DNA of 54,255 nt, from positions 1 through 54,255 of the forward strand of contig JBDRNU010000011.1 in NCBI GenBank assembly GCA_043810775.1, written 5' to 3'. The notes below the pieces were generated by a model. It had not been told where the DNA came from, did no database searches, and was given only the letters and a program-made list of their open reading frames with translations. The stretch is from an archaeon (GTDB lineage Archaea; Nanobdellota; Nanobdellia; Pacearchaeales; GW2011-AR1). A program made the translations under genes and the position numbers. The stretch's first letter is position 1. Every line of letters starts with the position of its first letter. This document shows positions 7,168 through 33,630 of this stretch, piece after piece.

Positions 7168-7235
7168 TAATAAAATAAGAAACCTTATTTAATAAACTTT
7201 TCTCATAGTAAAATCTAGCCTCCATTCACCATTTT

Positions 7236-8162
7236 TTATGGGAGTTTTTCTATTTCTTTTATCTCACCACTATAAGGATTTATCTCAATTTTTCTACGAG
7301 AAGCAGGAACTATAATATCTTTATATTCTGGCTCTACCCAGACATCCTTGTAATATCCCTCTTTAACTTTTACTTTAGTCTTCTTTGTAAAAGTATCTTT
7401 AGTATCATCCCAGTGTTCTTTATTAGTAAATGGTAAAAATAAAGTTCCCATTATAGTTCTAGGAATCCCATACATTATTCCATTTTCAATATCAGCTACC
7501 TCTCTTTCTTCATACTCTGGCTCTACCCATTGCTTATCATAATGCCCTTCACTAATTAATCTTCTTTCAACTCTCTTAGAAACATTCTCAACCGCAGTAT
7601 AATTAAAAGATTTTATATCTTTAAGCAATTTTTCCTCGCCAGGAAAATCATCTTTTTTAATATCAGAATATAATCTTCTTATATTTGATTGAATTTCACC
7701 AGGAGGAAATCTGGCTGGACTTTTTTTAATTTGATCAAATCTTTCCATATATTCAGATTTTTTGTTTAGTTTTGCAATTTCTGGGTCTATAGTCTCATCA
7801 TCATATCTAGTAACTAACTCACCAAGTGAACCAAACCTGCCAGACCATTCTTTAGCTAATTTTTTCTGAAGTTCTTCGCTAATTCTATCAGCTTCCTGAA
7901 TATTTCCAGCTGAAACACTCTGTTCAACCTGTTTAAATTCACCGTGATACTCTAAATATCTTTTCTGCCTCCTATCCTGAGTGTCCTTTACACCAGCAAA
8001 AGCTATTAATGAAGCTAATCCAATATAAAATAATAAATGTAAAGTTGGTGCAAAATCAAATTTACGTTTAGCTTTAATTGGGCTAACTTCCGTTTTAGGC
8101 TGTTCAGATTGTTCAATTTTTCCAAAATTTACTAACTCTTCCTCTAGATTATCCATCTTCAA
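7236..8162 (-). CDS. NLEEEL-leader, single-TM protein of the PY(S/T)GE family
   Basis: MDNLEEELVNF (likely ATG at 8156); TM LHLLFYIGLASLIAFAGV; internal repeat EG(H/Y)YxxxWVEPEY; ends INPYSGEIKEI. Confidence 0.8.
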   Translation of the reverse strand: MKMDNLEEELVNFGKIEQSEQPKTEVSPIKAKRKFDFAPTLHLLFYIGLASLIAFAGVKDTQDRRQKRYLEYHGEFKQVEQSVSAGNIQEADRISEELQKKLAKEWSGRFGSLGELVTRYDDETIDPEIAKLNKKSEYMERFDQIKKSPARFPPGEIQSNIRRLYSDIKKDDFPGEEKLLKDIKSFNYTAVENVSKRVERRLISEGHYDKQWVEPEYEEREVADIENGIMYGIPRTIMGTLFLPFTNKEHWDDTKDTFTKKTKVKVKEGYYKDVWVEPEYKDIIVPASRRKIEINPYSGEIKEIEKLP

Positions 8163-8997
8163 TCAATCCATACTTTTTCCACATAGGAACTTTTCTTGCA
8201 ATTCTCTCTGCCTCTTCCCTACTCATTTTCCCATTATTTACATCATCTTGCATAATCCCCATAATACTTTCAAAATCTTCATCGCCCCTATGCACTTTTC
8301 TCATGCTTTTTTCAGCTTTACGGGAGAAAAAACCAGGAGTATAACTTGAAGAAGTAGTTGGAAAACCACTACTCTCTGTCTGCCTCATTAAATCAAAAGC
8401 TTTAGGAAGATTTCTGGAAATTTCATCTATTTTCCTCCAATCTAAATCCTCACCTTGATCTGCTCTATCTGATAAACCTTTAATTACATGAGGTAATAAA
8501 CCAGGATCTACCACTTTTCCTAAATTTTCCTGAATTTGAGATAATAAAGGGTTCGAAGTTCTTGGAGGAATATAAGGTTCTGCAGGTTTACCATATAGCA
8601 CTTCATCTGCAAGTTTTTGATACTCAGGAGAAATGCCAGGAATTCGTGATTTTAGCTCAGGATTTATAAGTTCAATCTTCTCTCCAGAAGGTGTATGGAA
8701 CATATCTATAGGTCTAAGTTCTGGTTCAGGAAAAATATCTCTAACTTCATCTGAATCAGGAAAGCCATATCTTTTCCTGTAATCTCTAACAGCTTCGATT
8801 GCTTTTCTTAGAGCAGTATCTTTATCTGGTTTTCCAGTAACTCCATCATAATCTCTCTTTGCTTTTTTAAATTCCTCAGGAGTAGGACTTTCAGCTTCTT
8901 TGCTCAATTCAACTAGCTCTTGTTCTAGATTTTCAGGCTGTTCAGATTGTTCAATTCTTCCAAAATTTACTAATTCTTCCTCTAAATTTTCGCTCAT
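8149..8997 (-). CDS. Soluble hypothetical protein with two tandem NLE(E/Q)EL leaders
   Basis: MSENLEEELVNFGRIEQSEQP-ENLEQELVELSKEAE; no TM. Confidence 0.8.
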   Translation of the reverse strand: MSENLEEELVNFGRIEQSEQPENLEQELVELSKEAESPTPEEFKKAKRDYDGVTGKPDKDTALRKAIEAVRDYRKRYGFPDSDEVRDIFPEPELRPIDMFHTPSGEKIELINPELKSRIPGISPEYQKLADEVLYGKPAEPYIPPRTSNPLLSQIQENLGKVVDPGLLPHVIKGLSDRADQGEDLDWRKIDEISRNLPKAFDLMRQTESSGFPTTSSSYTPGFFSRKAEKSMRKVHRGDEDFESIMGIMQDDVNNGKMSREEAERIARKVPMWKKYGLIEDG

Positions 8998-9027
8998 TTT
9001 CTTATAAATCTAATTTTATATTTAATT

Positions 9028-9972
9028 TTATCTTTTTGCAAAAAAATCCTGCACGTTTTTATTACCATATAATTTAAAATCAGTAATGTTTATTCCAATT
9101 TTATCCCCATATCTATCAGAAACATCTTCAGACTCTCCTTTAAAAGGATTACATTTATGTATCCTTTTTATTCTTTTATTGAAACAATAAGTTCCAGCCC
9201 AACTTAAAGTAGCTAAAGGGGCAAAATTTAATTCAACTTCAGGACTAATATAAGTGAATCCTTTTATCTCGTCTAATAATTCTTGATAAGCTCTTTGATC
9301 AGATTCTTTATAAATACTTTTTACAAGTCCTCTAATTTCATCATAGATCTTTGCATCATCAATTAAAACAGAGTTTCGCCCCACTGAAGACATATAAAGC
9401 TGACAATTAAGCGGTTTCTTAATCTCCTCAAACCTTCTCTGATACCAAGTATTTACCTTAGTATGCTCTGGTTTTTTTTGGTCAACTTCAAATTCAAGTC
9501 TAGACTTCTCCATAAGCTCAGCTTTTCTTGCTTCATCTCTTGCCAGTACTTGATCATACCAACTGGGAGTTTCTTCTTTTGTTTCCCGAGTAATAGGATT
9601 TAAAGTTTCATACTCCTTTTTTTCAGCTGGCTTAGGTTTTTCAAACTTTTCAGGTTCAGGAGGTTTAATTTTCTCTTCTAGTTTGCTCTCTTTAACAGGC
9701 TCTAATCTTGCTATTTCAGTATCTTTAGGTTCATACTGCTCCACAATAGGGGAGCTTTCATGAAACATCCTCTTTTTTATCGCATAATCCATACCACAAA
9801 CAAAGGCAAACCCAAAAAGAGCCACCAATCCAGCAGGAATTAAAGTCTTCCAATTAGGACCTTTTTTATATTTTTTAATTTCTATTGGTTCAGATAAAGA
9901 TGTTGAAGGTTCTAAATTTTTAGCTTCCCTTGCCAGTTCAGCTAGCTCTTGCTCTAGATTATCTTTTTCCAC
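9028..9972 (-). CDS. NLEQEL-leader, single-TM protein (paralog of 21244-22191)
   Basis: GTG start; KKGPNWKTLIPAGLVALFGFAFVCGMDYA; FAPLA...NKRI...NPFKGE. Confidence 0.8.
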   Translation of the reverse strand: MEKDNLEQELAELAREAKNLEPSTSLSEPIEIKKYKKGPNWKTLIPAGLVALFGFAFVCGMDYAIKKRMFHESSPIVEQYEPKDTEIARLEPVKESKLEEKIKPPEPEKFEKPKPAEKKEYETLNPITRETKEETPSWYDQVLARDEARKAELMEKSRLEFEVDQKKPEHTKVNTWYQRRFEEIKKPLNCQLYMSSVGRNSVLIDDAKIYDEIRGLVKSIYKESDQRAYQELLDEIKGFTYISPEVELNFAPLATLSWAGTYCFNKRIKRIHKCNPFKGESEDVSDRYGDKIGINITDFKLYGNKNVQDFFAKR

Positions 9973-10630
9973 TTTCTCTAATGTTCCTCCCTATAATTTC
10001 CTCAGAAGAATAAAAAGGTCTGACTCTGATTTCATCATAATAAGTAAATCCTACATTATCTTTTGGAAAAGATAAAGGTCTATAGCTAGAGGGATTAAGA
10101 ATTATATTAGGTGAAAAAGCAACAATACTTGCAATATCATGAACTAGATTTCCTGGATTAAGATGATTCTGAGTTACTTCTTCATAACCTTGGAAGAAAT
10201 TTCTCTTAATATATTCAAAGCCTTTCAATCTCTCTAAATATTCTTTTGAATAAATATTAGAATCTCTTCTAAGCTTAGAAGTTAATTCTCTAAAAAGAAT
10301 ATTCACATTATCGGGCTTATTCTGCTTGATATAGTATATTATTTTATCATCATAACTTCCATATCTTTTCTTAAATTCTGAATAAGCCATAAGATTATCA
10401 GAAGACTCAACCAAATCCTCCACCCCCTTATTCTGAAAACCTTCAATTCCAATATCTTCCACAATTGGAAATCTAGTCCATTTAACTATTCTAGAATAGA
10501 CAAAATCTCTGGTATCATGGGTTTCATAACTTGAATAAGAATTAGTCGTGATAGTTCTAGTAGCACTTGCGCATGAATTGCTTCCTATCAATATAGTTGC
10601 AAGTAGGAAATTTAGTAATTTATTTTTCAT
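9959..10630 (-). CDS. Putative lipoprotein, PY(T/S)GE family
   Basis: MKNKLLNFLLATILIGSNSC lipobox-like signal; YYDEIRVRPF C-terminus. Confidence 0.8.
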   Translation of the reverse strand: MKNKLLNFLLATILIGSNSCASATRTITTNSYSSYETHDTRDFVYSRIVKWTRFPIVEDIGIEGFQNKGVEDLVESSDNLMAYSEFKKRYGSYDDKIIYYIKQNKPDNVNILFRELTSKLRRDSNIYSKEYLERLKGFEYIKRNFFQGYEEVTQNHLNPGNLVHDIASIVAFSPNIILNPSSYRPLSFPKDNVGFTYYDEIRVRPFYSSEEIIGRNIRESGKR

Positions 10631-11268
10631 TCTACCTTAACCTCTTTATTTATTATTATCTCAGTTCCATAATAAGGGTGAACTCTAAAATCATCGTAAA
10701 ATTTTTCCCTAGTAGGTTTTTTCCTAATGCCTGATGAAGCTGATTTATCCTCTTTTAAATAAAAATATAATTGATAAGGCAACATAACAACATCCAAAGC
10801 CATTTTCTCCAATGAATAATCATACTCTTTTTTCCAAACTGCTCCAACTTCAGCATCATAATAAACTCTTTTTACATATTCAAAATTTTTTACCCTTCCC
10901 AAATAATTTTGAGCATGCTTATTAGGATCTTTCTTCAATTCATCAACCAAAGCCATAAAAGTTTTATTCCCTCTATCTAATCTCTCATTTGAATAATGAT
11001 CTATAATCTCTTCAACACCAGCAGAATATTTTTTTCTAAACTCAATATACTCTAAATAATCATCAGTAGTTTCAATTAATATCTCCACATTACTTGAACT
11101 TAAAGAAGAGGCATTAGTAATGCTAATGTCAGTAACAGAAACTATATCAAATCCCAAGACATCGCTTTTTTCAACTTTCTTATCTCTTGGACCAGAGTAG
11201 GTAGTAGTACACGAAGTGCTCACAGCTAAAGTGAGTGCAAGTAGAAAATTTAGTAATTTACTTTTCAT
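10627..11268 (-). CDS. Putative lipoprotein, PY(T/S)GE family
   Basis: MKSKLLNFLLALTLAVSTSC; LIETTDDYL; FYDDFRVHPYYG; ends VKVE. Confidence 0.8.
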   Translation of the reverse strand: MKSKLLNFLLALTLAVSTSCTTTYSGPRDKKVEKSDVLGFDIVSVTDISITNASSLSSSNVEILIETTDDYLEYIEFRKKYSAGVEEIIDHYSNERLDRGNKTFMALVDELKKDPNKHAQNYLGRVKNFEYVKRVYYDAEVGAVWKKEYDYSLEKMALDVVMLPYQLYFYLKEDKSASSGIRKKPTREKFYDDFRVHPYYGTEIIINKEVKVE

Positions 11269-11906
11269 TCTACCTTAACCCTCTCCCTTACAACTTCCTC
11301 TTCCCCAGTATAAGGTCTGACTCTGATTTCATCATAATATTTCTCTTTAAGAACATTTTTTGAATACGAACCAGAACTAGTTTCCTTAAAAAATAAAAGA
11401 TAAAATGGTTGCCAAGGTATACCTGCAATATCCATAATAATTTCATCCCAAGTATAATTTTTATCCTGCTCCCAACCTTCTCCAATTTCAGCAGAATAAA
11501 ACACCCTTTTAGTATATTCAAATTCTTTTATTTTCTCCAGATACTGCTGAGCATATTGATTATTATCCTTTCCAAGTTTTTTAGATAATATCATGACTAA
11601 CTTATTAGCTTCGTCAAACTTATTTTTTTTGAGAAACTCTAATATATCCACAGCATCGTCAGAATACTCCTGCCTAAATTCAATATATCCTAAATAGCTA
11701 TCAGTAGTCTCAATCAAGCCTTCAACTCCTTTTTTCTTAGGAGGTTCTAAGCTTATTGAAATATCTTCTGCCGAAATAAAGTCATAAGTTAAAATATTTG
11801 TGCTTTGAACTTCCTTATTTCTAGGAGCATCATATATAGTGGTAGCGCATGAAGTAGTTCCAACCAATATAGTTGCAAGTAGGAAATTTAGTAATTTATT
11901 TTTCAT
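11265..11906 (-). CDS. Putative lipoprotein, PY(T/S)GE family
   Basis: MKNKLLNFLLATILVGTTSC; GVEGLIETTD; YYDEIRVRPYTGEEE; ends ERVKVE. Confidence 0.8.
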   Translation of the reverse strand: MKNKLLNFLLATILVGTTSCATTIYDAPRNKEVQSTNILTYDFISAEDISISLEPPKKKGVEGLIETTDSYLGYIEFRQEYSDDAVDILEFLKKNKFDEANKLVMILSKKLGKDNNQYAQQYLEKIKEFEYTKRVFYSAEIGEGWEQDKNYTWDEIIMDIAGIPWQPFYLLFFKETSSGSYSKNVLKEKYYDEIRVRPYTGEEEVVRERVKVE

Positions 11907-11909
11907 TCT
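11838..11909. repeat. 72-bp exact direct repeat (second copy 13203-13274) encoding the lipoprotein signal MKNKLLNFLLATILVGTTSCATT
   Basis: Base-by-base comparison of the two copies; degenerate copies lie at the starts of the 9959, 10627, 11903 and 15590 ORFs. Confidence 0.9.
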
Positions 11910-12559
11910 ACTTTTACTCTCTCCCTAATAATTGTTTTTTTTCCACTATAAGGATTGATTTGTACTTCATCATAATACTTATGTATAATCTCTTTTTCTT
12001 CAAGATAAGGAATGTCATTTATATCCCACTCACCAAATAGAATACCCCAAGCAAAAGCATAAGTCATTAATAAATGTGAAGGAGTATCTAACAAACTAAA
12101 ATCATCAGTAAATCCAGTCTTCCTTCCAATTTTCATATCATAATAAACTTTCTTCTTATATTCAAAATTCTTTATCCTTTCTAAGTAATCATGTGCATAA
12201 ATATTATCATCACACTCAAGTTTATCAGCCAATCCTCTAACTAAAATATGTGCTTCAATAAAATCATTATTTTCTAAACTCTCCTGAATTCTAATAGGAT
12301 ATCCATAATACTCTTGTCTAAATTCAAGATAATCTAAATAATCCTCTGTAGTCTCAATCAAACCCTCAACTCCTTCCTGATTAGGAGACATCAAACTTAT
12401 AGAGATATCTTCTGAAGAAGTAAAATTATGATCAGTCATTTGAAGATCAAAAGTTCCCTCACGTTTAGGAATCTGATAAATAGTAGCACACGAAGTAGTT
12501 CCTACTAACAAGCATGCAAGTAAAAATGTGAATAATTTAGTTTTCATTTTATTTTTCAA
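11903..12559 (-). CDS. Putative lipoprotein, PY(T/S)GE family
   Basis: LFTFLLACLLVGTTSC; GVEGLIETTEDYL; YYDEVQINPYSG; ends ERVKVE. Confidence 0.8.
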   Translation of the reverse strand: MKNKMKTKLFTFLLACLLVGTTSCATIYQIPKREGTFDLQMTDHNFTSSEDISISLMSPNQEGVEGLIETTEDYLDYLEFRQEYYGYPIRIQESLENNDFIEAHILVRGLADKLECDDNIYAHDYLERIKNFEYKKKVYYDMKIGRKTGFTDDFSLLDTPSHLLMTYAFAWGILFGEWDINDIPYLEEKEIIHKYYDEVQINPYSGKKTIIRERVKVE

Positions 12560-13271
12560 ATCTCTCTTGCTCCCTTAAAAAAGATTGTAAATCATAATCA
12601 TCAAATTTAAAACCATCACGAGGAATCTTATTTTCAAAAACATCAAGACTCATACCAATAAATTGAGGATATGACTCTGAAATATCAGTTGTCTCTCCAG
12701 TATAAGGATTGTACCTGTAAAATCCTACAACTGTAGAATTATCCGGATATGCTTCTGAATCAAGCAAGCTTTTAACCATCTTCCCCCCAAAAGTATATCC
12801 AAGATTTAATCTGACATTATAATACTCAAATTCCCTTATTTCATTAATTAAAGGAAGAAAGCACTCCAAACACTTTTCCTCAGAGATGGTTGCTAACAAA
12901 GAATAAACATATCTAGTAATTTGGTTATCGTCAATGTAAGTTATTTGCTTTTCCTCAATATCATTATAATCATAATCGTCATTTAATCTATTCTGAATCC
13001 TATTAAACTCTCCCCTAAAAACCCTCATCCTTCCAGAACTCTCAAAAATCTCATCTAATTTCTCAATACTATGATCAAGCTCACTTATTAATTCATCTAC
13101 TCTCTCTTTTTTTGGAGGCCTTACTCTTGTCTTTTTTTGTGCAGGTTCTTCAAGTGGAAGTGAACTTATTTTTGAGACTTCCTCATTTCCATTAGTAGGA
13201 TAAGTGGTAGCGCATGAAGTAGTTCCAACCAATATAGTTGCAAGTAGGAAATTTAGTAATTTATTTTTCAT
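12549..13271 (-). CDS. Putative lipoprotein with body related to 9028/21244 paralogs
   Basis: Signal identical to that of 11265; IREFEYY...YNPYTGETTDISESY aligns with IKGFTYI...CNPFKGESEDVSDRY of 9028. Confidence 0.8.
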   Translation of the reverse strand: MKNKLLNFLLATILVGTTSCATTYPTNGNEEVSKISSLPLEEPAQKKTRVRPPKKERVDELISELDHSIEKLDEIFESSGRMRVFRGEFNRIQNRLNDDYDYNDIEEKQITYIDDNQITRYVYSLLATISEEKCLECFLPLINEIREFEYYNVRLNLGYTFGGKMVKSLLDSEAYPDNSTVVGFYRYNPYTGETTDISESYPQFIGMSLDVFENKIPRDGFKFDDYDLQSFLREQERFEK

Positions 13272-14071
13272 TCTTCTTCCCTCAAAACTTTTTCAATTCG
13301 AGATATCCCATCAGCATCTTGTTTTTTCCTTATTTCTTCCATTTTTTCATCTTCCTTAATCACTCCACCTGATTTCTTAAACTGGTATCTCTTTATAGCA
13401 GATGAGTAAATTCCATAATCCCAAGAGTTAATACGTGGAGATTTTAATTTCCTTGATAATTTGACTGCTTTTTCACAATGCTCAATTGCATCATCAAAAT
13501 TCCCCCTAAGAGCATCAATCTTTGAAAGTGTAAAATAAAGGGCAGGACAATCATCATTATAACATACAGCTCTTTCAGGGTTCTTACCTTTGCTTGCATA
13601 CGACTCAATAGCTTTACAATTTCCAGTAGATTCACATTCATCATGAAATTCTAAAGATTTTCTAATCATTTTCTCAGCTCTATCTAAATACCTATAATCG
13701 TAAAAAAGTTCAGCTAAATTACTATAAACAGGTAAGCAGTCTGGGTCTAGTTCTAAAGCTTTCTTATATTCTCTTAAAGCCTCATCTGGCCTTTTGCTTA
13801 CCAAACTAAATCCTTTATTATTATGTTGAATTGCTTCATCAACTATTTTATGTTTTCTTCTTTCCTCTTTAATCCTTCCTTCAATTCTATTAATGTACTC
13901 ATCTATTTCTCTTATTAGTCTGTCTATATCTTGATTTGATTGTACCAAGTAAATTCTGGTTTGATCCTGCTCTAAATTCCTTTCCAAGACCCTCTCTAAC
14001 TCTCCCGCCTCCACCCTCCCACCAGCTAATAAAACTCCTGCAAATACTAAGGGAATTAATTTATTTTTCAT
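13268..14071 (-). CDS. Secreted TPR protein
   Basis: Signal MKNKLIPLVFAGVLLAGGRVEA; TPR motifs EALREYKKALELDPDCLPVYSNLA and DDAIEHCEKAVKL. Confidence 0.8.
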   Translation of the reverse strand: MKNKLIPLVFAGVLLAGGRVEAGELERVLERNLEQDQTRIYLVQSNQDIDRLIREIDEYINRIEGRIKEERRKHKIVDEAIQHNNKGFSLVSKRPDEALREYKKALELDPDCLPVYSNLAELFYDYRYLDRAEKMIRKSLEFHDECESTGNCKAIESYASKGKNPERAVCYNDDCPALYFTLSKIDALRGNFDDAIEHCEKAVKLSRKLKSPRINSWDYGIYSSAIKRYQFKKSGGVIKEDEKMEEIRKKQDADGISRIEKVLREEE

Positions 14072-14077
14072 TCTACT
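14024..14077. repeat. 54-bp exact direct repeat (second copy 15546-15599) encoding VE-stop/MKNKLIPLVFAGVLLA
   Basis: agctaataaaactcctgcaaatactaagggaattaatttatttttcattctact at both positions; spans a gene junction. Confidence 0.9.
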
Positions 14078-14745
14078 TTTACTCTCTCCTTTAATATTTC
14101 TTCTTCTCCCGTATAAGGTCTGACTCTGATTTCATCATAATAATAAACAACAATAGGTGACATTTCAAAACCTTTCTTTCTGAGTTTTTCTATCATAGGT
14201 TCAATAAATTCTTCGTTACCAGAATAATAATTAAAAGTAGATTTCTCATAATAAGAAGACTCAGAAGTTACTCTACTCTTCTCCCATATTTCACCTACAT
14301 CAGCAGAATAATAATCTCTCCTCACATATTCAAAATTCTTAATTGTCTCAAAATATTGTTGAGCATAAGGATTTTCATCTTTTTGAAGTATCCTCCCCAA
14401 ATCTCTCACTTGCCTATCTAGTGTAGATAAGTTATTTCGTCTTTCAGAGCAATTTTTAATAATATTAGTAATCCTCACAGCATCATCAGAATACTTCTTT
14501 CTAAATTCAATATATTCTAAGTAATTATCAGTAGTCTCAATTAATCCTTCAACTCCTGTTTGTTTTGGAGGTTCTAAGCTTATAGAAATATCTCCAGCTG
14601 ATACAATTTCACTATGCTGAATTATAACCTCTGCCTTTAACTGAATATTTCTTGGAGTAGGGGTAACTCTCTCACAGGAAGCACTCCCAGTCAAAACAGC
14701 TGCAAATAACAAAGCTGTTAGACTTTTTCCCATTGTAAACTTCAT
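14068..14745 (-). CDS. Putative lipoprotein, PY(T/S)GE family, with a different signal peptide
   Basis: LLFAAVLTGSASC; body close to 15590; YYDEIRVRPYTGEEEILKERVKVE. Confidence 0.8.
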   Translation of the reverse strand: MKFTMGKSLTALLFAAVLTGSASCERVTPTPRNIQLKAEVIIQHSEIVSAGDISISLEPPKQTGVEGLIETTDNYLEYIEFRKKYSDDAVRITNIIKNCSERRNNLSTLDRQVRDLGRILQKDENPYAQQYFETIKNFEYVRRDYYSADVGEIWEKSRVTSESSYYEKSTFNYYSGNEEFIEPMIEKLRKKGFEMSPIVVYYYDEIRVRPYTGEEEILKERVKVE

Positions 14746-15593
14746 CTCAAACCCCTCCCTAAATATCTATCACTAAATAAAGTATCTTTATACCCTACAC
14801 ACAAATCTCTATATCCTCTCAGCTCCTTTTGCAAATCTTCTAAATCCCTGACACTCTGATTAGGATATCTTAATTCCTCCCCAATAACAGCTATCCTATC
14901 ATTATATTGCTGATATCTACTTTCAGCTAGTTGTTTTAATTTAGAATAAACTTCTTCCCTGGTATCAATCACAGATGAGCATAAAGCCTTGTTATAAGAA
15001 TAAGGCTCCTGAGTAATTAACACAGACATCTTCTGCAATAACTGATCATAACTTATCAATCTATCAATATTTTCTTCCTTAATATCTTTCTCATATGATA
15101 CTGCTATTTTCTTAAAATCATCTACTAACTCCTGAATCTTCTTTAACTCTGGAACTATTACTTGAGATTTATAGCTTGAAACAGAATCTCTTAAATTACT
15201 AATTCCCTGATACCCTTGAACTCTACTAACAACTTGCGAATCATAATCAGGGCTAAAGCTATTTAATCTTGAGCTTAATTCTTCATGCAAGCGGCTAGAT
15301 TCATAATAATCTTTTTTTTCTACAGCTCTCTTTACCATAAAAAACTGCTGACTTAACTCTCGAACAGTGCTCTCTTCTTTCTTTATACCCTCCTCTTCAA
15401 CTTTAACTATTTTTTTTGATAACTCGCCAATGTATTCATCAACTGTTATTATTAAAGTATTAATTTCCGAACTAGCTTCTATCTGATTATTACTAAGGGG
15501 AATGCCTTGAAGCGCTTTTTCCAACTCCCCTGCCTCCACCCTGCTAGCTAATAAAACTCCTGCAAATACTAAGGGAATTAATTTATTTTTCAT
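14742..15593 (-). CDS. Secreted helical/coiled-coil protein (related to C-terminal part of 16318)
   Basis: Signal MKNKLIPLVFAGVLLASRVEA; ends LFSDRYLGRGLR, versus LFSERYL in 16318. Confidence 0.78.
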   Translation of the reverse strand: MKNKLIPLVFAGVLLASRVEAGELEKALQGIPLSNNQIEASSEINTLIITVDEYIGELSKKIVKVEEEGIKKEESTVRELSQQFFMVKRAVEKKDYYESSRLHEELSSRLNSFSPDYDSQVVSRVQGYQGISNLRDSVSSYKSQVIVPELKKIQELVDDFKKIAVSYEKDIKEENIDRLISYDQLLQKMSVLITQEPYSYNKALCSSVIDTREEVYSKLKQLAESRYQQYNDRIAVIGEELRYPNQSVRDLEDLQKELRGYRDLCVGYKDTLFSDRYLGRGLR

Positions 15594-16321
15594 TCTACTC
15601 TAACTCTCTCCTTTAGAACTTCTTCATCTCCAGTAAAAGGTCTGACTCTGAATTCATTATAATACTTTTTTTGAACAGTGCTTCTAGTAGTTGGACGAGG
15701 GTCATAATTTTCACTAGATCCACCTTTCTTTACATGATCCCATTGTTCAGAGAACGCTTTTCTTTCCTCAGGTAAGATCAAAAGAGGAATCTCTACAGCA
15801 GTGTAAATTCCCATAAAAGTAGCAGCATGAACAAAAGCCAGAGGATTAAACCTTTTATTAAGATTACCCCTCTCTCCAATTTCAGCAGAATAATAATCTC
15901 TCCTAATATATTCAAAATCTTTAATCTTTTCAAAATACTGCTGTGCATATTGGTTTTCATCATTCTCAAGTCTTTTTCCTAAATCTCTTACTAATTTATC
16001 AACTGAAACTAAGGAATCTAATCCTTTAGAGCAATTTTCAATAACAGTCATTATATCCTTTGCATCTTTGGAATACTCTTTCCTAAATTCAATATATTCT
16101 AGATAATTGTCAGTAGTTTCAATTAAGCCTTCTACTCCTTGATTTTTTGGAGCTTCTAAACTGATAGAAATATCTTCAGCAGATATAACTTCACTATGTT
16201 GAAAAATATTTTCATCATACTGCCTGACATTTCTAGGGCTAGAATAAGTAGTAGCGCAGGAAGTGGCTCCAACTAGAGTAAGTGCAAGCAGGAAATTTAG
16301 TAGTTTATTTTGATTCATCAT
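15590..16321 (-). CDS. Putative lipoprotein, PY(T/S)GE family
   Basis: NKLLNFLLALTLVGATSC; long hydrophobic insert; YYNEFRVRPFTGDEE. Confidence 0.8.
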   Translation of the reverse strand: MMNQNKLLNFLLALTLVGATSCATTYSSPRNVRQYDENIFQHSEVISAEDISISLEAPKNQGVEGLIETTDNYLEYIEFRKEYSKDAKDIMTVIENCSKGLDSLVSVDKLVRDLGKRLENDENQYAQQYFEKIKDFEYIRRDYYSAEIGERGNLNKRFNPLAFVHAATFMGIYTAVEIPLLILPEERKAFSEQWDHVKKGGSSENYDPRPTTRSTVQKKYYNEFRVRPFTGDEEVLKERVRVE

Positions 16322-17481
16322 AAATACCTCTCACTGAATAGGGGAACAGGATTCCTAGTATATTTTTCCATTTCAGATTTCACACTTGCTAATTCATTTC
16401 TTAATGATTTTAATTCATCTGCACTTAAATCATTCCTGCTGATTCTCTTTCCTAAATCACTAATTTTTGTTTCATACTCTCTCTGCTTAACTCTAGCGAA
16501 TGTTCTTAAAACCAATACTACAGCTACATACTGCTTTTGAAATTTAGGTTTTAGTTCAGGATAATCACTAACTAAAGAACTTTGAAGCACAGAAGACAGT
16601 TCATTATCAACTCTGATTAAATTTGCAATATCTCTTCCAATAATATACTTATCATAATTTTGAGAAGCTTGCTGCAACTCAGCACTAATTTCAGATATTC
16701 TTGCTGTATGAGTTCCTAACTGGGTTTTTCTATATTCCTGAATTACATCACTAAAAGAATTTAAGCTACTAATTCCATTTTCTCTTAATTTCCTATTAAG
16801 CTCCGAATTCTCAGTTAAAAATGCTTTATTATCATAAACCAAAGAATTACTAGTTAATTGAGATAATAAAGATTCAATTGCAGCATCTGCTTCAGCATAA
16901 TACTTCCTATTAGCTGACTGTTTAGCTGAATCAAATTTATCCAAAAGTTTTGCAACTAGATCTTGCTCAGCTTTAATGCCTTTGAGATGGGCTTGTTCAA
17001 TCTCCCTAACCCTAGATTCCTTATCTCCAAACTGGACTCTTTCGCAAAAAGCCATTAATTCATCTAAATTATTTTTCCTCTCCTTATAATCTTTTTTTAA
17101 AGATATCTTGGACAATTCTGTAGAAACTTTTGAGCTTATAGTAGTATCAATTTTTTCATCTAGCTTGCCATAATCAGGAAGCAGCCCTAATTCAATTGCT
17201 TTTTTATCTTCACTTGCATCATCAATTAATCTTTCAATCTCTTCATCAGCTAAGTCTAGTTTACCTTCTTCTAAAAGGAATGAGGCAGTGTCATATCGAG
17301 TTTTATAATCTCTAATTTTCCTTTCATCTAAAGAGCTTCTAACTTGCGGAAGAGATAGTATTCCTACGCTTAATATTCCTACAGCAGCTAAACCTGTAAT
17401 TAGCTTAGCTAAAGGAAATTTTGGCTTTTTCTCTTCAATGCCCATCAATTCAACCAAATCTTTTTCTAAACTATCTTTCAT
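16318..17481 (-). CDS. Leader (DSLEKDLVEL), single-TM coiled-coil protein
   Basis: Leader variant, TM LITGLAAVGILSVGILSL, helical body. Confidence 0.8.
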   Translation of the reverse strand: MKDSLEKDLVELMGIEEKKPKFPLAKLITGLAAVGILSVGILSLPQVRSSLDERKIRDYKTRYDTASFLLEEGKLDLADEEIERLIDDASEDKKAIELGLLPDYGKLDEKIDTTISSKVSTELSKISLKKDYKERKNNLDELMAFCERVQFGDKESRVREIEQAHLKGIKAEQDLVAKLLDKFDSAKQSANRKYYAEADAAIESLLSQLTSNSLVYDNKAFLTENSELNRKLRENGISSLNSFSDVIQEYRKTQLGTHTARISEISAELQQASQNYDKYIIGRDIANLIRVDNELSSVLQSSLVSDYPELKPKFQKQYVAVVLVLRTFARVKQREYETKISDLGKRISRNDLSADELKSLRNELASVKSEMEKYTRNPVPLFSERYL

Positions 17482-17950
17482 TTTGCCCCCTTATTTTATT
17501 ATAAAATTTAACTGTGGCTTGAGCATTATAAACTACATTCGCACTATAACAAGAAAAACTAAAATTAGAAAATTGAGCTTGAAAATCAACAGAATCACTA
17601 ATCTTTAAAGCTGAATGATTTCTCTCTCTCGCTTCTTCTAAAGCCTTCTTCTCAAGTTTTTCTTTTAATTTTGCTAAGTGTTCTGCTTCAGCTTTAATAT
17701 AAAACTTTTGAGTCCCAAATGCTCTATCTATAATGTTTCCATGTATATAGTGAAACATTTGACCAGCTGGAGGGGTTCGAGCAGGTACTAAATCAACTTT
17801 ATTACGAATTGAAGTGACACTAATTCCTTTAGTAAGAACATTCTCATAGTCTTCTGGAACTTGATCTCTCCCAAAAAACATAATCGGTTGACTCACTTCA
17901 TCCTCTACTTCTCCAAGTTTCGTTAACTCTTCTTCAAGATTTTCTCCCAT
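17471..17950 (-). CDS. NLEEEL-leader small alpha/beta protein (family with 19034, 20005)
   Basis: PIMFF...KALEEARERNHSAL...YNAQATVKFY shared with paralogs; SD-like GGAG upstream. Confidence 0.78.
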   Translation of the reverse strand: MGENLEEELTKLGEVEDEVSQPIMFFGRDQVPEDYENVLTKGISVTSIRNKVDLVPARTPPAGQMFHYIHGNIIDRAFGTQKFYIKAEAEHLAKLKEKLEKKALEEARERNHSALKISDSVDFQAQFSNFSFSCYSANVVYNAQATVKFYNKIRGQNER

Positions 17951-18023
17951 TTGAATCTCCTATCACCTCTTTCGCCTCTCTCTCCAATTGACTCAATTCT
18001 TTTTCTAAGTTTTTATTTTCCAT
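17934..18023 (-). CDS. 29-aa leader-only mini-ORF MENKNLEKELSQLEREAKEVIGDSNGRKS
   Basis: Manually translated; fills the gap between 18013 and 17950, overlaps both neighbours and carries the family leader. Confidence 0.65.
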   Translation of the reverse strand: MENKNLEKELSQLEREAKEVIGDSNGRKS

Positions 18024-19050
18024 TATCCACCCCCACCTGACCAGAAGACTCAAAATTCAGGGGCCTGCGCATTAAAGAATCTGAATCTCCCATATTTCTC
18101 GCACCCTGCCTCAAGCTTAAGTCAGTAGTCATTCTCCAATCCATTAAATCTCTAACAGGTGCATAATTTGCATCTAGCTCTAAAATTTTCTCAACTTGAG
18201 TAGTAGCATTATAGCGATCCCCTTTATCAAGCAAAACTCTTGCAAGGTTAAAATGATACTCAACATTATCTCTATCCAATCCTAGCGCAGTTTTATAAGC
18301 CTTAATAGAAGCTTCAAGATCACCTTTCTCCCTATAAACATGCCCTAAATTACTATAAGAAGGAGCATGATCAGGAGCAAATTCCACACATTTTCCATAA
18401 GCTGTAATTGCTTCATCAAACTTACCTTTTTCAAAAAAAGCATTTCCTAAATTATTATAAACAGGTGCATAATTTGCATCTAGCTCTAATGCTTTTTCAT
18501 ATTCTTTTACTGCTTCATCAAACCTCCCTCTTTGATACAAAACAATTCCTAAATTATTATGGGGAGGTGCTAGATCTGGTCTAAGTTCAATTGTTTTTCT
18601 AAGTATACTTTCAGCTTCACTAAGTTGACCATTGTTTTGTAAAGCATTTCCTAAATTATTGCAAATCACAAAATTATGGGGGTCATATTCTAAAGCTTTT
18701 TTATAATCTTTGATTGCCTTATCTAATTTACCCTCTTTAACAAGATCTTCAGCTATATGGAAATAATGATCTCTTCTTGCAACATCTATTTTATGCTCAT
18801 TATTTACTTCTTCTGTTTGCTCAAGAATCGCTCCCCCCCTATTAGGATTATCATTTCTAGCTTTATTCCAGGCAGGTACAGTAACAGCTGCTATCATTCC
18901 ACAAACTCCCAATACTGCTGCTAACTCAACAGCTCTAAATCCCTGATGTTTTTTATGTTTCTTTTTAGGCTTCCTTTTAATATACTTTTTAAAGCCTCCT
19001 ACTTCACCCAGTTCAGCCAGCTCTTGTTCTAAATTATCTGTCATTTTCAC
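18013..19050 (-). CDS. NLEQEL-leader TPR protein with prepilin-like hydrophobic segment
   Basis: Likely ATG at 19044; QGFRAVELAAVLGVCGMIAAVTVPAWNKAR; about 6 TPRs; 30-bp internal repeat at 18154-18183 and 18460-18489. Confidence 0.85.
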   Translation of the reverse strand: MKMTDNLEQELAELGEVGGFKKYIKRKPKKKHKKHQGFRAVELAAVLGVCGMIAAVTVPAWNKARNDNPNRGGAILEQTEEVNNEHKIDVARRDHYFHIAEDLVKEGKLDKAIKDYKKALEYDPHNFVICNNLGNALQNNGQLSEAESILRKTIELRPDLAPPHNNLGIVLYQRGRFDEAVKEYEKALELDANYAPVYNNLGNAFFEKGKFDEAITAYGKCVEFAPDHAPSYSNLGHVYREKGDLEASIKAYKTALGLDRDNVEYHFNLARVLLDKGDRYNATTQVEKILELDANYAPVRDLMDWRMTTDLSLRQGARNMGDSDSLMRRPLNFESSGQVGVDNGK

Positions 19051-19603
19051 TATCCTTTAAATCATAAAAATAAGCAGTAACTGAAGCATTATATTTAATA
19101 TCTGCTCTAAAAGGCCCTGCAAGAGGTTCTTTAAAATTAAAAATTGAACCAGAAATCCTGATTTTTTCTTCTTCTATTAATACTGCATCATGTTCCCTAT
19201 CTATAGCTTCCTGTTCAGCTTTTTCCCTTAATAAACTTATTAAATCCATTATATGCTTATTTTCTTCAGGATCATATTGGGGATAAACCTCCCCCATAAA
19301 CACACGATTATAAGAAAAATTATAATCTCCAGAAGGAATTTCAGTAAGACCTGCTTTTTGATATTCGGCAGAAACTGAAATTCCTGCAGTCCCAACCATC
19401 CTATAAATTTCAGTAGGAATACCATCCTCACTTAAAAATACAGTTGGCTGAGAAGGTTTTTTCAATTTTCTTTTTTTTAAATCATCTACCTGAGCTCGAA
19501 TAGCTTCAATTCTATTTATTAATTCTTGTCTGGCTTCTTTATCTGAATTTTCAGCTTCTCTTGCAAGTTCAGCCAGTTGTTCTTCTAAATTATCCATCTT
19601 CAT
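19034..19603 (-). CDS. NLEEQL-leader small alpha/beta protein
   Basis: PTVFL...EKAEQEAIDREHDAVL...YNASVTAYFYD. Confidence 0.78.
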   Translation of the reverse strand: MKMDNLEEQLAELAREAENSDKEARQELINRIEAIRAQVDDLKKRKLKKPSQPTVFLSEDGIPTEIYRMVGTAGISVSAEYQKAGLTEIPSGDYNFSYNRVFMGEVYPQYDPEENKHIMDLISLLREKAEQEAIDREHDAVLIEEEKIRISGSIFNFKEPLAGPFRADIKYNASVTAYFYDLKDSENDR

Positions 19604-20018
19604 TTTTTTCTTTCAATTTTTTTATACGTTGATCTGGAGATATATTTAACCTTTTATCCTCAGGATTTGTCCAATAAATATCTCCATGAGTATCTGAATA
19701 TTCTTGATAAAAAGGGCATGATCCATAAGGGAAAAATCTCCTTTTCTTAAAAAGACCTTTCGAATCCTGCTTAAGAGCACATCCTTTATGATAAATAATA
19801 AGACCTACATCTTTAGAATAATCTTCTCTTCTTGTATCTGTTTTTTCAACAAAAAATTTGCAATTAACCTCTCTCTCAAAAATCTCAATTCTTCCATTTC
19901 CTGTTTTTCCCTCAAGAACAGAACAGTGCATTTCTATGGGATAACTTCTAGTTTCTTCAGGCTGTTCAACTTCCCTGCTTAATTCAGCCAGCTCTTGTTC
20001 TAAATTATCCATCTTCAC
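19590..20018 (-). CDS. NLEQEL-leader small Cys-containing protein
   Basis: MDNLEQELAEL; four Cys (HC, NCKF, GCAL, CPFY), possibly metal-binding. Confidence 0.75.
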   Translation of the reverse strand: MKMDNLEQELAELSREVEQPEETRSYPIEMHCSVLEGKTGNGRIEIFEREVNCKFFVEKTDTRREDYSKDVGLIIYHKGCALKQDSKGLFKKRRFFPYGSCPFYQEYSDTHGDIYWTNPEDKRLNISPDQRIKKLKEKNEDG

Positions 20019-20580
20019 TACCTACCTGATCATAAAAATAAATAGGAATTTTGCAAGAATATTTAAGAGTTCCTCTTGGATGCCCAAGATCCAGAGTACC
20101 TCTGCTAAAATCAGAAATTGAAATTCTTGTATTAGAAAAAATTTCAGTTTCATTATAAAACACAGCGTCATGTCCTCTATTCCTAGCTTCATCTCTCGCC
20201 ACCCTATAAACTTCTTCTTCTAAATCAATAAAATGTTTTTCCTGAAAATCATCATAATAAAAAGGCTTATTATGAATTTCATTACTCTGTGTTAATAAAA
20301 TCGAATTTTCATTTAATTTAGAAACTTCATCACTATTATAAGTTAAAGAAATATTAATATTTACACATTCTATACTAGCTCTTAATTCATACTTTCCTGC
20401 TTTTTCATAGTTATCTAAAACTTCTTCTTCATTTCTAAATACTAAAGGCTCTCTTGGCTTTCTAGAAATATCACTCACTATTCCCAATACTTTCTGTATT
20501 AACTCTCTAGCTGTTGCATCTTCTAACTGTCCAGCTTCCCTGCTTAATTCAGCTAATTGTTCTTCAAGATTTTCGCTCAT
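20005..20580 (-). CDS. NLEEQL-leader small alpha/beta protein
   Basis: PLVFR...VARDEARNRGHDAVF...YSCKIPIYFYD. Confidence 0.78.
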   Translation of the reverse strand: MSENLEEQLAELSREAGQLEDATARELIQKVLGIVSDISRKPREPLVFRNEEEVLDNYEKAGKYELRASIECVNINISLTYNSDEVSKLNENSILLTQSNEIHNKPFYYDDFQEKHFIDLEEEVYRVARDEARNRGHDAVFYNETEIFSNTRISISDFSRGTLDLGHPRGTLKYSCKIPIYFYDQVGSEDG

Positions 20581-21254
20581 TTTGGTAAAAATATCCTCCC
20601 TCCCCTCTGCTTTTCAGGCCATCCAATTCCTTTTATTCCTTCCTTAAAAGCTCCAACAAAAGTTTGTTCCCTATCAGGATCCATATATTTTGGCTTGAAT
20701 CTTTTATGCTTGGGCAATACTATTTCAGGCACATCAACTCTTCTTCCAATAGGATCAAACCTTAATTTTGTTTCCTCATCCCGAAAAGGAAATCCCAATA
20801 CTAAAACTCCTTGTTCATTTGTCCTTAAAAACCGAAAACCTACTCCCCACTCATTAAGTGTAAATAGATTTGACGCAGATCTATTATCTCTATAAGTCGT
20901 CACTAAAACCTGCCATTCAGAACCAGCGTCATGAGAATTTGCTTTTATTAACAAATCTTGATAATCCTTATTATCTTCATAACTTTTCCAGATTTCGAAA
21001 GCATCAGAAAACATTTTTTCTGCCTGTCCCCTATTCCCTTGATTAGAGTTTATTACACCTAGATTATAATGGGCTTCTGCAAATTCAGGTTCAAGTTGAA
21101 TTGCTTTTTCATATTCTAAACTAGCCATATTAAGAGCTGCTGATCTCTGATATTCATAAGCCTGTCTAAAATGCTCTAACGCTTGGGGATTTCCACTAGT
21201 AATATTTTCTATTCTTGCCAACTTTGCAAGCTCAGCTTCTAAATTATTCTTCAT
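20577..21254 (-). CDS. NLEAEL-leader TPR protein
   Basis: YEKAIQLEPEFAEAHYNLGVI TPR followed by an unknown C-terminal domain. Confidence 0.8.
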   Translation of the reverse strand: MKNNLEAELAKLARIENITSGNPQALEHFRQAYEYQRSAALNMASLEYEKAIQLEPEFAEAHYNLGVINSNQGNRGQAEKMFSDAFEIWKSYEDNKDYQDLLIKANSHDAGSEWQVLVTTYRDNRSASNLFTLNEWGVGFRFLRTNEQGVLVLGFPFRDEETKLRFDPIGRRVDVPEIVLPKHKRFKPKYMDPDREQTFVGAFKEGIKGIGWPEKQRGGRIFLPK

Positions 21255-22191
21255 TTTTATCCTCTCTTAAAATATCTTGTAATCTTTTAGAACTTGGAAA
21301 AGAATTAATATCTTTTCCAAAAACACTATCAAATCTTCGCTTCTTTTCGCTTTTAGCTGTGAAATATTTAGATCCAAAATGAGTGGTTTTCCCAGAATAT
21401 ATATTATGTTCTGTAACACTATTGTCTGAGTGTCTGGAATAAATGACCTTACCAGAATAGGGGTTTACTTCAATAACCTGGATTATTCTTTTGTTATATT
21501 TTTTCTTTCCTGAAAATAAACTAGCTAAAGGAGCGAAACTAACCTTAAAGTAGACATCAACGTAATTAAATTCTTTAACTTCTTCTAGTAATTCTTGAAA
21601 ATACTCCTGATTTGACTCTTTAGATATATCTTCCGCCATTGCTCTAATTTCAAGTTGAATTCTTTTTTTATCAACCAAATTTGTTGCGTTGATAGGAAAG
21701 AGTTTATCTTCTAACATTATCTCAGGATTAGTTTCTTCCTTAATCTCATCTAATCTGCTCCAATATTGTTTAAGTCTCTCTCGCAAATCGTTTTCCCCAT
21801 ATCTCCCCACTGCTAATTCTCTTTCTTTTTCCCTTGAAGCAGGAGACTTTAAATCTACCTCTTTTTTGTTTGAAATAGCTAGTTGAGACTCTTCATTTTT
21901 CTCAGGCTCATATTGCTCAGGTTTACCCCGACTTAATATAATATTTTTAGATTGGTTTAATAAGTTTTTATTTTGCTCTGCAAAGTGATTTATCTCATGA
22001 GATTTAATTTTTTTCGCTGCATAATCCATCCCGCACACAAATGAAAATCCAGCAAGTGCTACCAATCCTGCTGGAATCAATGTCTTCAAATTAGGACCTT
22101 TATTTTTTTTAATTCCTGTTTGCTCAATTGAGTGTATTATTGGTTCTACTCTTCCAAATTCTTTAAGCTCTTCCTCCAAATTATCTTTCAT
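21244..22191 (-). CDS. NLEEEL-leader, single-TM protein (paralog of 9028)
   Basis: KGPNLKTLIPAGLVALAGFSFVCGMDYA; FAPLA...NKRI...VNPYSGK. Confidence 0.8.
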   Translation of the reverse strand: MKDNLEEELKEFGRVEPIIHSIEQTGIKKNKGPNLKTLIPAGLVALAGFSFVCGMDYAAKKIKSHEINHFAEQNKNLLNQSKNIILSRGKPEQYEPEKNEESQLAISNKKEVDLKSPASREKERELAVGRYGENDLRERLKQYWSRLDEIKEETNPEIMLEDKLFPINATNLVDKKRIQLEIRAMAEDISKESNQEYFQELLEEVKEFNYVDVYFKVSFAPLASLFSGKKKYNKRIIQVIEVNPYSGKVIYSRHSDNSVTEHNIYSGKTTHFGSKYFTAKSEKKRRFDSVFGKDINSFPSSKRLQDILREDKNEE

Positions 22192-22853
22192 TCTAAAACC
22201 TCCTTTTCAAATCTCCCCCCACCATTCCTATAAAGTCTAATGTCCACATCCCAAGCTCCTTGATTATCAACAAGTCCTCCAGAACGAACATCTTCATTCA
22301 TCCCCAAATAAAGCCTACCATTAAGAGGTACATCAAACCTTTTCAAAGGGCCAATATCAAAAGTAAAAGAACCGGGAGTGTAAGGAATATCAATCATTCC
22401 AACTAAACCATAAGCATTATGTCCTGGCGCTAAAAAATTTATATCTTTAGTAATCCTTTCTCCTTCTGGACCTATTGTATAATGAGCCAATCCAATTTTT
22501 TTAAACCTAACCTTTCCTCTTGCATCAAAATCAATTAAGTCCCCTTTTATTACATCGATTCCAGTATCAGTCCAGTCATCTCTCTTTGAATCAATCTTCA
22601 AAGCATGAGTTAAATGTAATCTTGGGCCATTAATTTGATTATTCTTATCAGAATATTCTATTATTTTGGGTGAATTTTTATTAAGTTCATAAAAAATCTC
22701 ATTAACTAAAGAACTTACAGGATCAACCAAAATTGCTCCAAAAACACTTAAAGTTAATACAATACTTGGCCAAAAAAGGCAACCTCTTTCCTTTCTTGGC
22801 TTTTCTTGATGACTTAATTCAGCTAATTCCTGTTCTAAATTTTCATTTTTCAT
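22188..22853 (-). CDS. NLEQEL-leader, single-TM protein with PA-IL/LecA-like lectin domain
   Basis: WTDTGIDVIKGD...ARG...GLVGMI...GRLYLGMNED...DNQGAWDVDI pattern. Confidence 0.72.
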   Translation of the reverse strand: MKNENLEQELAELSHQEKPRKERGCLFWPSIVLTLSVFGAILVDPVSSLVNEIFYELNKNSPKIIEYSDKNNQINGPRLHLTHALKIDSKRDDWTDTGIDVIKGDLIDFDARGKVRFKKIGLAHYTIGPEGERITKDINFLAPGHNAYGLVGMIDIPYTPGSFTFDIGPLKRFDVPLNGRLYLGMNEDVRSGGLVDNQGAWDVDIRLYRNGGGRFEKEVLE

Positions 22854-27259: not shown

Positions 27260-27333
27260 ATTGCTTTATTTTTTTTAATTTAAGATAGTATACACTATCT
27301 TACCTCTACAGCTCTGAAGAGATAAAAGGTCTT

Positions 27334-33595: not shown

Positions 33596-33630
33596 GTGAT
33601 TTTTTTATTTTAAAAAAAAAGAAAAAAAAT

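Follow-up and report, generated by a model that had tools for sequence, protein, structure and literature searches.

The cargo array described here lies on a 54,255-nucleotide (nt) contig (JBDRNU010000011.1, contig C11) of an archaeon of the Nanobdellota lineage GW2011-AR1 (assembly GCA_043810775.1, here G000), and the entire contig is referred to as the window. The draft assembly comprises 995 kilobases (kb) in 26 contigs with 33% G+C and is 80% complete. The array consists of 21 co-directional genes and one tag-only open reading frame (ORF), most of the junctions overlapping by 4–17 nt, and its genes are named by the letter g followed by their low (stop) coordinate (Table 1). No terminator-like hairpins were found on either strand in 6800–24500, compared with 7.0 ± 3.0 in shuffled sequences, which is consistent with a single long transcription unit, the pattern used being a bacterial one. 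A promoter scan, also with a bacterial pattern, was of no help (68 sites against 68.7 expected). The array is best read as the cargo end, amplified in tandem, of a long cluster of co-directional genes that is probably a single operon.

The proteins of the array combine a limited set of bodies with a limited set of N-terminal modules. Families were established by all-against-all BLASTP, Pfam and profile comparisons, and the Sec and lipoprotein assignments were read by eye from the N-termini. The lipoprotein-like L family has six copies (g9959, g10627, g11265, g11903, g14068 and g15590), and the M family has three (g9028, g21244 and, more distantly, g7236), to which the chimera g12549 is added; in M proteins an acidic N-terminal tag precedes a membrane helix, a linker rich in Pro, Glu and Lys, and the body. 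The three copies of the N family (g17471, g19034 and g20005) carry the tag only, without a membrane helix. TPR bodies were found in g13268, g18013 and g20577 (by Pfam for g13268), and a helical 'C' body in g14742 and g16318, while no relative was found in these comparisons for the bodies of g8149, g19590 and g22188. Four N-terminal modules were distinguished, namely a putative lipoprotein-type leader, a putative Sec-type leader, the acidic tag followed by a membrane helix, and the acidic tag alone.

Table 1. Coordinates of the genes, repeats and neighbouring features of the cargo array in the window.
Feature	Coordinates	Strand	Remarks
g7236, M-like	7236..8162	−	C-terminal domain with G286 relatives, 36% identity
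g8149	8149..8997	−	Two in-frame tandem tags; body without relative found
g9028, M family	9028..9972	−	Acidic tag, membrane helix, Pro/Glu/Lys linker, body
g9959, L family, lipoprotein-like	9959..10630	−	
g10627, L family	10627..11268	−	
g11265, L family	11265..11906	−	
g11903, L family	11903..12559	−	Leader 5′ end doubled: MKNK codons behind TTG, then second ATG
g12549, chimera	12549..13271	−	L-type leader, M-type body
g13268	13268..14071	−	Sec-type leader, about 90 N-terminal residues as in g14742, TPR repeats
g14068, L family	14068..14745	−	Sister body of g15590, leader sequence unrelated
g14742	14742..15593	−	Sec-type leader on helical 'C' body
g15590, L family	15590..16321	−	
g16318	16318..17481	−	Tag-like N-terminus and membrane helix on 'C' body
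g17471, N family	17471..17950	−	Tag, without membrane helix
Tag-only ORF	17934..18023	−	29 codons; overlaps g18013 end and, out of frame, g17471 start
g18013	18013..19050	−	Tag, basic stretch, membrane helix, TPR repeats
g19034, N family	19034..19603	−	
g19590	19590..20018	−	Tag on small body without relative found
g20005, N family	20005..20580	−	
g20577	20577..21254	−	Tag on TPR body, without membrane helix
g21244, M family	21244..22191	−	
g22188	22188..22853	−	Tag and membrane helix, body without relative found
Cargo array	7236..22853	−	
72-nt exact repeat, copy A	11838..11909	−	3 nt upstream, then g11265 codons 1–23
72-nt exact repeat, copy B	13203..13274	−	Same leader, 3 nt upstream and 23 codons of g12549
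45-nt exact match to first 45 nt of the 72-mer	10589..10633	−	Start of g9959
54-nt exact repeat, copy A	14024..14077	−	6 nt upstream, then 16 codons of the g13268 leader
54-nt exact repeat, copy B	15546..15599	−	Same leader on g14742
Extended junction repeat, copy A	13995..14142	−	g14068 3′ end and g13268 5′ end
Extended junction repeat, copy B	15520..15664	−	g15590 3′ end and g14742 5′ end
Lineage-specific island	7202..37940	−, all genes but one	30.7 kb between FtsY and SRP54
FtsY	5450-6571	+	Left neighbour of island
Ser/Thr protein kinase	22850..24283	−	Pfam PF00069, E 4e-32; first gene upstream of array; G291 counterpart
PP2C-type phosphatase	24267..25076	−	Pfam PF13672; G291 counterpart, E 8e-22
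TrmB-family regulator	27422..28177	+	Sole plus-strand island gene; Pfam PF01978
Three large core genes	28174..33595	−	801-residue transglutaminase-like domain, 476-residue P-loop and 530-residue AAA proteins (Pfam)
SRP54	37982-39352	+	Right neighbour of island

The longest exact direct repeat in 7000–24000 measures 72 nt, compared with 14–17 nt in 30 dinucleotide-preserving shuffles. A first-pass annotation made from the letters alone had reported an identical 72-bp lipoprotein signal on two different bodies and an identical 54-bp Sec signal on a TPR and a coiled-coil body, and both were recovered exactly. The 72-nt repeat (72/72) stands before the L body of g11265 and the M body of g12549, with 23 of 23 leader residues alike, and the 54-nt repeat (54/54) before g13268 and g14742, 'coiled coil' being for the latter a reading by eye; each was found in exactly two copies in the assembly. 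Identity between g11265 and g12549 drops to background directly on both sides of the 72 nt, after codon 23 and upstream. The 54-nt tract lies inside the extended junction repeat (148 nt, 88% identity), in which the upstream L gene ends are 85–88% identical, and the leaders of g13268 and g14742 are followed by about 90 residues with 42% identity (first 93 downstream residues). The tracts of 72, 54 and 45 nt each begin 3–6 nt ahead of the ATG, the first 18–21 nt are common to every lipoprotein-type and Sec-type leader, and DNA conservation within the array is highest at the gene junctions, each consisting of a gene end and the next leader.

Repeats of this kind in a metagenome-assembled draft could reflect a chimeric contig path, and the incompleteness and fragmentation given above speak for such an artefact. 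Host DNA was present in three public groundwater metagenome runs from two studies, one of which may be the source sample (10–13% of sampled words, depth of about 3, short contigs), and among the contigs listed from these runs none spans a repeat copy. A mis-join, however, alters gene order but cannot make two left and two right flanks for one 72-mer, so that one leader on two bodies stands. The tracts would also be shorter than ordinary read lengths, and short public-run contigs were 100% identical to the window at several other junctions, for example 12449–12626, 9918–10223, 14549–14779, 10611–10761 and 16298–16558. An assembly origin is hardly to be credited.

Evidence for recent copying came from synonymous sites, for which the number of identical codons among identical amino acids was compared with that predicted from codon usage across the genome. 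The leaders of g11265 and g12549 had 22/22 same codons (9.5 expected, P = 2e-9), followed by those of g13268 and g14742 with 15/15 (6.3 expected, P about 1e-6), g9959 against g11265 or g12549 with 16/17 (7.4 expected, P = 5e-6) and g10627 and g11903 with 11/12 (4.9 expected, P = 2e-4). The bodies were at expectation, with 23/40 same codons against 21.0 expected for g11265/g12549 and 33/60 against 28.8 for g13268/g14742. Synonymous sites are thus identical within sharply bounded tracts and near saturation in the bodies, which is the contrast that characterises gene conversion, and the suggestion of the first-pass annotation that recent recombination or gene conversion had acted at gene starts gained support, short-tract gene conversion or ectopic recombination being the preferred reading. 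The remaining 17 of the 21 lipoprotein-leader pairs gave P ≥ 0.006, 14 of them P > 0.05 (e.g., 9/15 against 6.3 expected), and since these pairs, of the same function, lack such identity, selection on the peptide or the start region alone is insufficient and recent DNA copying is needed. The same pairs, which also have the same kind of junction, argue against the proposal that leaders are held identical by selection at the nucleotide level, through translational coupling, mRNA structure of the start region or an RNA targeting signal. That proposal would account for tracts that start at the stop/start overlap, for the 18–21 nt common to the lipoprotein- and Sec-type leaders and for the slightly higher codon sharing than expected in leader pairs generally; nevertheless, g14068 works with a quite different leader and the equivalent tags of genome G286 are diverged at synonymous sites, which makes such selection highly improbable as the explanation.

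Three of the five body families occur behind at least two kinds of N-terminal module. M bodies were found behind the tag and helix or the lipoprotein leader, C bodies behind the Sec leader or the tag and helix, and TPR bodies behind the Sec leader, the tag and helix, or the tag alone. The earlier observation that related bodies carry different leaders was upheld for each of the three comparisons it had named. The C bodies of g14742 and g16318 are 24% identical over 228 residues (E 4e-9) and have a C-terminal LFS[DE]RYL motif in common. Without its leader, g12549 matched the profile of g9028, g21244 and g7236 with an hhalign probability of 85% (E 6e-6, 130 columns) and the L-lipoprotein profile with only 1.4%, and therefore an L-type leader stands on an M-type body; the BLASTP match of g12549 to g9028 had an E value of 2e-9, and its identity to the genome's own M genes was 24%. 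The L bodies of g14068 and g15590 are sisters (support 97/97; 54% amino-acid identity), and their leaders are the least alike, with 7/23 residues and 49% of bases the same; a search of the whole genome for a donor of the g14068 leader found none. Additionally, the TPR part of g13268 is related to g18013 (34% identity, E 5e-13).

The chimera g12549 could also have arisen if a recent duplicate of the beginning of g11265 had been joined to an M-type body through an illegitimate deletion, for instance in an L–M fusion gene that lost its L body. Fusions of this kind exist in other metagenomes, where the lipoproteins P0010 and P0011 each combine an L body and, after it, an M body in a single chain. 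In P0010 the C-terminal half matched the M profile (hhalign 96%, E 1.5e-9) and is closer to g12549 (31% over 151 residues, E 1e-18) than g12549 is to the M genes of its own genome, and in g12549 identity stops precisely where the leader gives way to the body, the flanks showing no homology. On the other hand, neither an L-body remnant nor a duplicated upstream flank was found beside the 72-nt tract, the gene order here is M-like and then L, opposite to the order in the fusions, and the same type of tract occurs in g13268/g14742 and g9959/g11265, in which both partners are intact homologues. A deletion origin of g12549 is considered unlikely. Independently of the origin of g12549, P0010 and P0011 would link the L and M families functionally. 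The idea that L and M form one superfamily was abandoned, since leaderless profiles gave an hhalign probability of only 27% over 32 columns and an earlier value of 96% had been inflated by the L-type leader of g12549.

In a body tree of the six L genes and five outside relatives, the six L bodies of this genome formed one clade (91/94), and this clade, together with the regular spacing of the L genes (638–644 nt), indicates that the array expanded in place by tandem amplification. The explanation that is favoured, with somewhat better than even confidence, is tandem duplication followed by short-tract gene conversion of leaders between neighbouring genes. After in-place duplication, the leader segments would stay similar since signal-peptide function is required, and would be the only parts still alike enough to pair; a leader would occasionally be overwritten by that of a neighbour through short-tract, non-reciprocal homologous recombination, the tract ends corresponding to the ends of leader homology. 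The bodies would diverge freely, so that their synonymous sites become saturated while those in converted tracts remain untouched. Older events, such as illegitimate recombination, domain fusion or loss, or indels, would have set the same body type behind different modules, and the outcome would be surface proteins with alternative anchoring, by a lipid, by an N-terminal membrane helix or not at all when released. Very short homology is usable for conversion in archaea, as in Sulfolobus. For g13268 and g14742, conversion between paralogues is favoured because older homology flanks the tract on either side, as conversion would predict. Footprints of leader duplication are the double tag of g8149, the tag-only ORF and the doubled 5′ end of g11903.

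Several observations weigh against this explanation. The expected codon identity was taken from genome-wide codon usage, and 5′ ends may be more biased; background leader pairs lie about 1.3 times above expectation, which lessens the force of the P values without cancelling it. No polymorphic arrangement, strain comparison, or listed contig or read across a repeat shows the recombination process, and g11265 and g12549 have no homology beyond the 72 nt, so that duplication plus deletion or illegitimate fusion would account for this pair just as well. Resolution of the body tree is poor, with 5 of 8 inner branches open, and the approximately unbiased (AU) test does not reject g9959 + g11265 on the body data (p = 0.158). 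The comparison of leader and body genealogies that the first-pass annotation had called for thus gave partial information: formal incongruence is limited to g14068/g15590, and the argument for exchange draws chiefly on the codon test and g12549. Finally, the lipobox is atypical at position −3, where 7/7 leaders have Thr, Ser or Ala and none has the usual Leu, Val or Ile. In other respects the seven leaders look like lipoprotein signals, with a positively charged n-region, a hydrophobic h-region, small residues at −1/−2 and Cys at +1, and the Cys is invariant in 32/32 aligned family members; many outside L relatives carry Leu at −3. Archaeal lipoproteins that depend on the AliA/AliB pathway are described in Haloferax volcanii, and AliA is reported to occur in DPANN with some gaps (PMC12462473). 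The leaders of the array resemble these in the invariant Cys of the N-terminal signal and lack the hydrophobic residue usual at −3, and export and lipidation of the proteins are best regarded as predicted.

The first-pass annotation had also described the locus as an integrase-free shuffling array, of which only the first part stood. No match to the tyrosine recombinase profile PF00589 was found on C11, the two of the genome (80% complete) lying on C6 and C26, and the best match to the reverse transcriptase profile PF00078 (15.2 bits, on another contig) was under the 29.6-bit cut-off, so that nothing at the locus corresponds to a diversity-generating retroelement. Shuffling in the sense of gene reordering was not borne out, given a single gene orientation, the absence of a recombinase and no strain or read data showing rearrangement. 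Programmed variation, in which the junction repeats would be recombination sites that reorder, delete or duplicate cassettes, agrees with the array being unique to this genome among the genomes searched and with DNA conservation being highest at gene junctions, where recombination between direct repeats would give in-frame, translationally coupled products. It is contradicted by the lack of a recombinase, integrase or reverse transcriptase at the locus; inversion switches are impossible because all genes are co-directional, and only three to four pairs among 21 junctions show recent exchange, most junctions being as diverged as the bodies. None of the joints listed from the three public runs fell at the repeats, but their coverage (about 3) is far too low for a test, and from these joints, with sides of 20–22 letters and 88% likeness, nothing is drawn for or against rearrangement. 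Programmed variation is, on balance, quite improbable.

The acidic N-terminal tag behaves differently from the leaders. Its core is N-L-E-x-E-L, and a profile found 15 copies in the genome, 13 in the array and 2 on contig C7. Among 78 tag pairs the best codon-sharing P value was 0.0045, which fails correction for 78 tests, and 362 same codons were counted against 287.5 expected; because synonymous identity is not significant, the tags are kept as a peptide and, g7236/g8149 apart, not recently copied. In that one pair, the first tag of g8149 (8931–8991) has 92% DNA identity over 61 nt to the tag of g7236 (8093–8153). The notion of the tag as a swapped leader was thus not sustained. In G286, too, the tags are diverged in DNA, with 2–8 of 10–12 testable codons the same and a longest exact run of ≤17 nt, and the likeness of tags within a genome is maintained at the protein level. 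The tag profile gave no credible match in 40 relatives, the best being 18 bits inside a 960-residue frame, and the tag-like start of a protein from G029 did not reach significance (E 0.065). Resemblances to the tag in G029, G286, G291 and G474 were read by eye, and in this sense G286 and G291 have their own tag versions on the same body families. The two C7 tag proteins (41840–42649 and 47150–48310, locus L034) lie among housekeeping genes (phosphoenolpyruvate-utilising enzyme, ribosomal proteins), and for the 386-residue tag protein of C7 the 40 relatives yielded no match. The idea that the transglutaminase-like protein cleaves a double-glycine leader was rejected, since Gly-Gly follows the tag only in g18013 and one C7 protein.

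The functions of the bodies were also sought by comparison with known families. Pfam, NCBIfam and PHROGs gave no match for L, M, N or the other non-TPR cargo, and a PDB sequence search with the cargo bodies gave none either. In the ESM Atlas the L model was poor. The model for an N-family protein (19034–19603) was YbjQ-like, with template-modelling (TM) scores of 0.48/0.56, below the naming bar, and serves as a lead only.

The array forms part of a lineage-specific island. When G001, a genome of the same genus, was compared with the window by blastn, synteny broke off at 7201 and restarted at 37941, and the island is absent from G001. SRP54 and FtsY are 0.1–1.5 kb apart in 5/5 relatives checked, compared with 31.4 kb in this genome, and of 62 named loci with an upstream flank of 2.5 kb or more, 50 have FtsY upstream of SRP54, the median gap being 535 nt. 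The G+C content of the island is the same as that of the rest of the genome, and at its ends there is no flanking repeat longer than 10 nt, no integrase and no tRNA. Phage genes were not recognised, one weak PHROG match being obtained among 10 island proteins scanned (the 476-residue protein). The host is considered a Pacearchaeota-like DPANN archaeon because of the archaeal markers on the contig (SRP54, a RIO/Bud32-type kinase, a DHH-CID (GAN-type) nuclease and a split GMP synthase) and the closest named genes of SRP54, which belong to Candidatus Pacearchaeota, Woesearchaeota or Nanoarchaeota genomes with 58–69% identity (80 loci kept). Two of the nearest named relatives have a gene for a tyrosine recombinase (PF00589, E 4e-44 and 4e-46) directly upstream of SRP54 (L069, 2171–3016, and L072, 1147–1974); it is at the position of the island and may simply be the housekeeping XerA.

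Upstream of the array, the island carries the kinase, phosphatase, regulator and core genes listed in Table 1, as well as a gene for a 729-residue protein. Neither this protein nor the C7 tag-bearing protein had a credible match in the 40 relatives, and the L, M and N queries each matched 0/40; marginal matches only were obtained in two single-protein searches, in G033 (E 0.005) and in G029 and G035 (E about 1e-4 over 50–85 residues). As no close relative holds the array, there is no gene order to compare. A word-indexed search of 5.8 billion proteins returned only the window's own L and M proteins, and a profile of the six L proteins run against 1.84 billion representative proteins gave 61 matches at E ≤ 1e-3, of which 7 were own, 1 was a spurious repeat protein and 53 were outside relatives. 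The latter mostly have a lipobox-type leader, and a few have an N-terminal helix and a membrane helix. With the broader profile A6, matches were found in 1 of 200 other genomes sampled from the order and in 8 of 400 sampled from the phylum, all from the same class but other orders and with 1–2 copies each.

A related cluster was found in G291, from another order of the class (L160, G291:C3, 8557–19893), in the order P-loop, transglutaminase-like, TrmB (43% identity to the regulator of the island), large protein, PP2C and kinase, followed by one each of a tag-plus-helix gene, a Sec-leader gene, an L lipoprotein and a tag gene. Six of the correspondences, including those of the 801- and 476-residue core proteins, are backed by BLASTP, and for the large protein and three of the cargo genes the match is one of position alone. 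Because G291 holds single-copy cargo, the array is seen as an amplified version of a conserved, patchily distributed cluster. In G286 (L158, G286:C9, 11244–16568), four adjacent genes share one N-terminal motif and two further genes a second; the bodies of the four are N-like, M-like (36% to g7236) and TPR, the fourth having no match. In G029, from the same order (L062, G029:C3, 677–2448), a TrmB regulator (47% identity to that of the island) lies beside a single 336-residue protein, in which an acidic N-terminal helix is followed by a membrane helix, a linker and an L/M-like body, and this pair is a minimal version of the module.

Leader exchange is not a new principle, and it has parallels in Borrelia Erp and other surface-protein families. 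The Erp (OspE/OspF/Elp) proteins of Borrelia burgdorferi, encoded on cp32 prophages, combine one leader with many unrelated external parts and undergo frequent natural recombination (PMC10016077). The array is similar in that the same leader stands on unrelated mature parts (L in g11265, M in g12549), there is no dedicated switch, the proteins are predicted surface lipoproteins, as Erp are surface-exposed ones, and the genetic element is variable. However, Erp genes occupy separate loci on multiple prophage plasmids, in contrast to one co-directional cluster on a chromosomal island without a conserved promoter for each gene; and three or four kinds of N-terminal module are exchanged here, compared with one in Erp. 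The host here is, moreover, an archaeon, and its island lacks recognisable phage genes apart from the weak match mentioned above. The Mycoplasma loci vpma, vsp and vsa are likewise clusters of surface lipoprotein genes with conserved starts in very small genomes; they have highly conserved 5′ regions, divergent bodies and recombination sites between −72 and the start codon, and they require an adjacent Xer1/Mbr/HvsR tyrosine recombinase and inverted genes around a single promoter (PMC2268961). Neither of these two defining features was found here, with no recombinase on the contig and all 21 genes on the minus strand. Concerted evolution of tandem paralogues likewise produces identity tracts with diverged flanks, synonymous homogenisation inside the tract only and cis neighbours as partners, but in the present case only the targeting leader was homogenised, once across body families, so that the address was moved. 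No prior description of leader exchange in archaea was found in the open-access literature searched, and the archaeal variant of the Erp-type family of one leader with diverse bodies is new; its context, with the island, the upstream cluster and the genome-specific tag, is more unusual.

DPANN archaea spend their lives attached to other cells, and most of their surface proteins belong to no known family. The locus shows how a surface repertoire could grow and be re-targeted through ordinary recombination alone, and it yields an archaeal lipoprotein-like family with outside relatives, including fusions that join two body families. The presence of a genome-specific tag on unrelated proteins beside a conserved kinase/phosphatase/ATPase cluster leads to a testable hypothesis of sorting or docking. 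In its widest form, which is speculative and rather doubtful at present, the N-terminal modules would be addresses read by the upstream machinery (kinase, PP2C, two ATPases, the transglutaminase-like protein and TrmB), the acidic helix would be a new lineage-specific sorting or docking signal that co-evolves with its reader in each genome, and the island would be a mobile DPANN surface-remodelling system with cargo diversified by junction recombination. If so, recombination at the junctions would re-address bodies between lipid anchor, membrane helix and release.

Two minor features were observed on the contig outside the island. A tRNA-Thr(TGT) at 2085–2170 is 86 nt long, which suggests an intron, and an ORF of 1906 residues (48062–53782, minus strand) is located in the one stretch of the contig where G+C is raised (0.38–0.41, compared with about 0.33).

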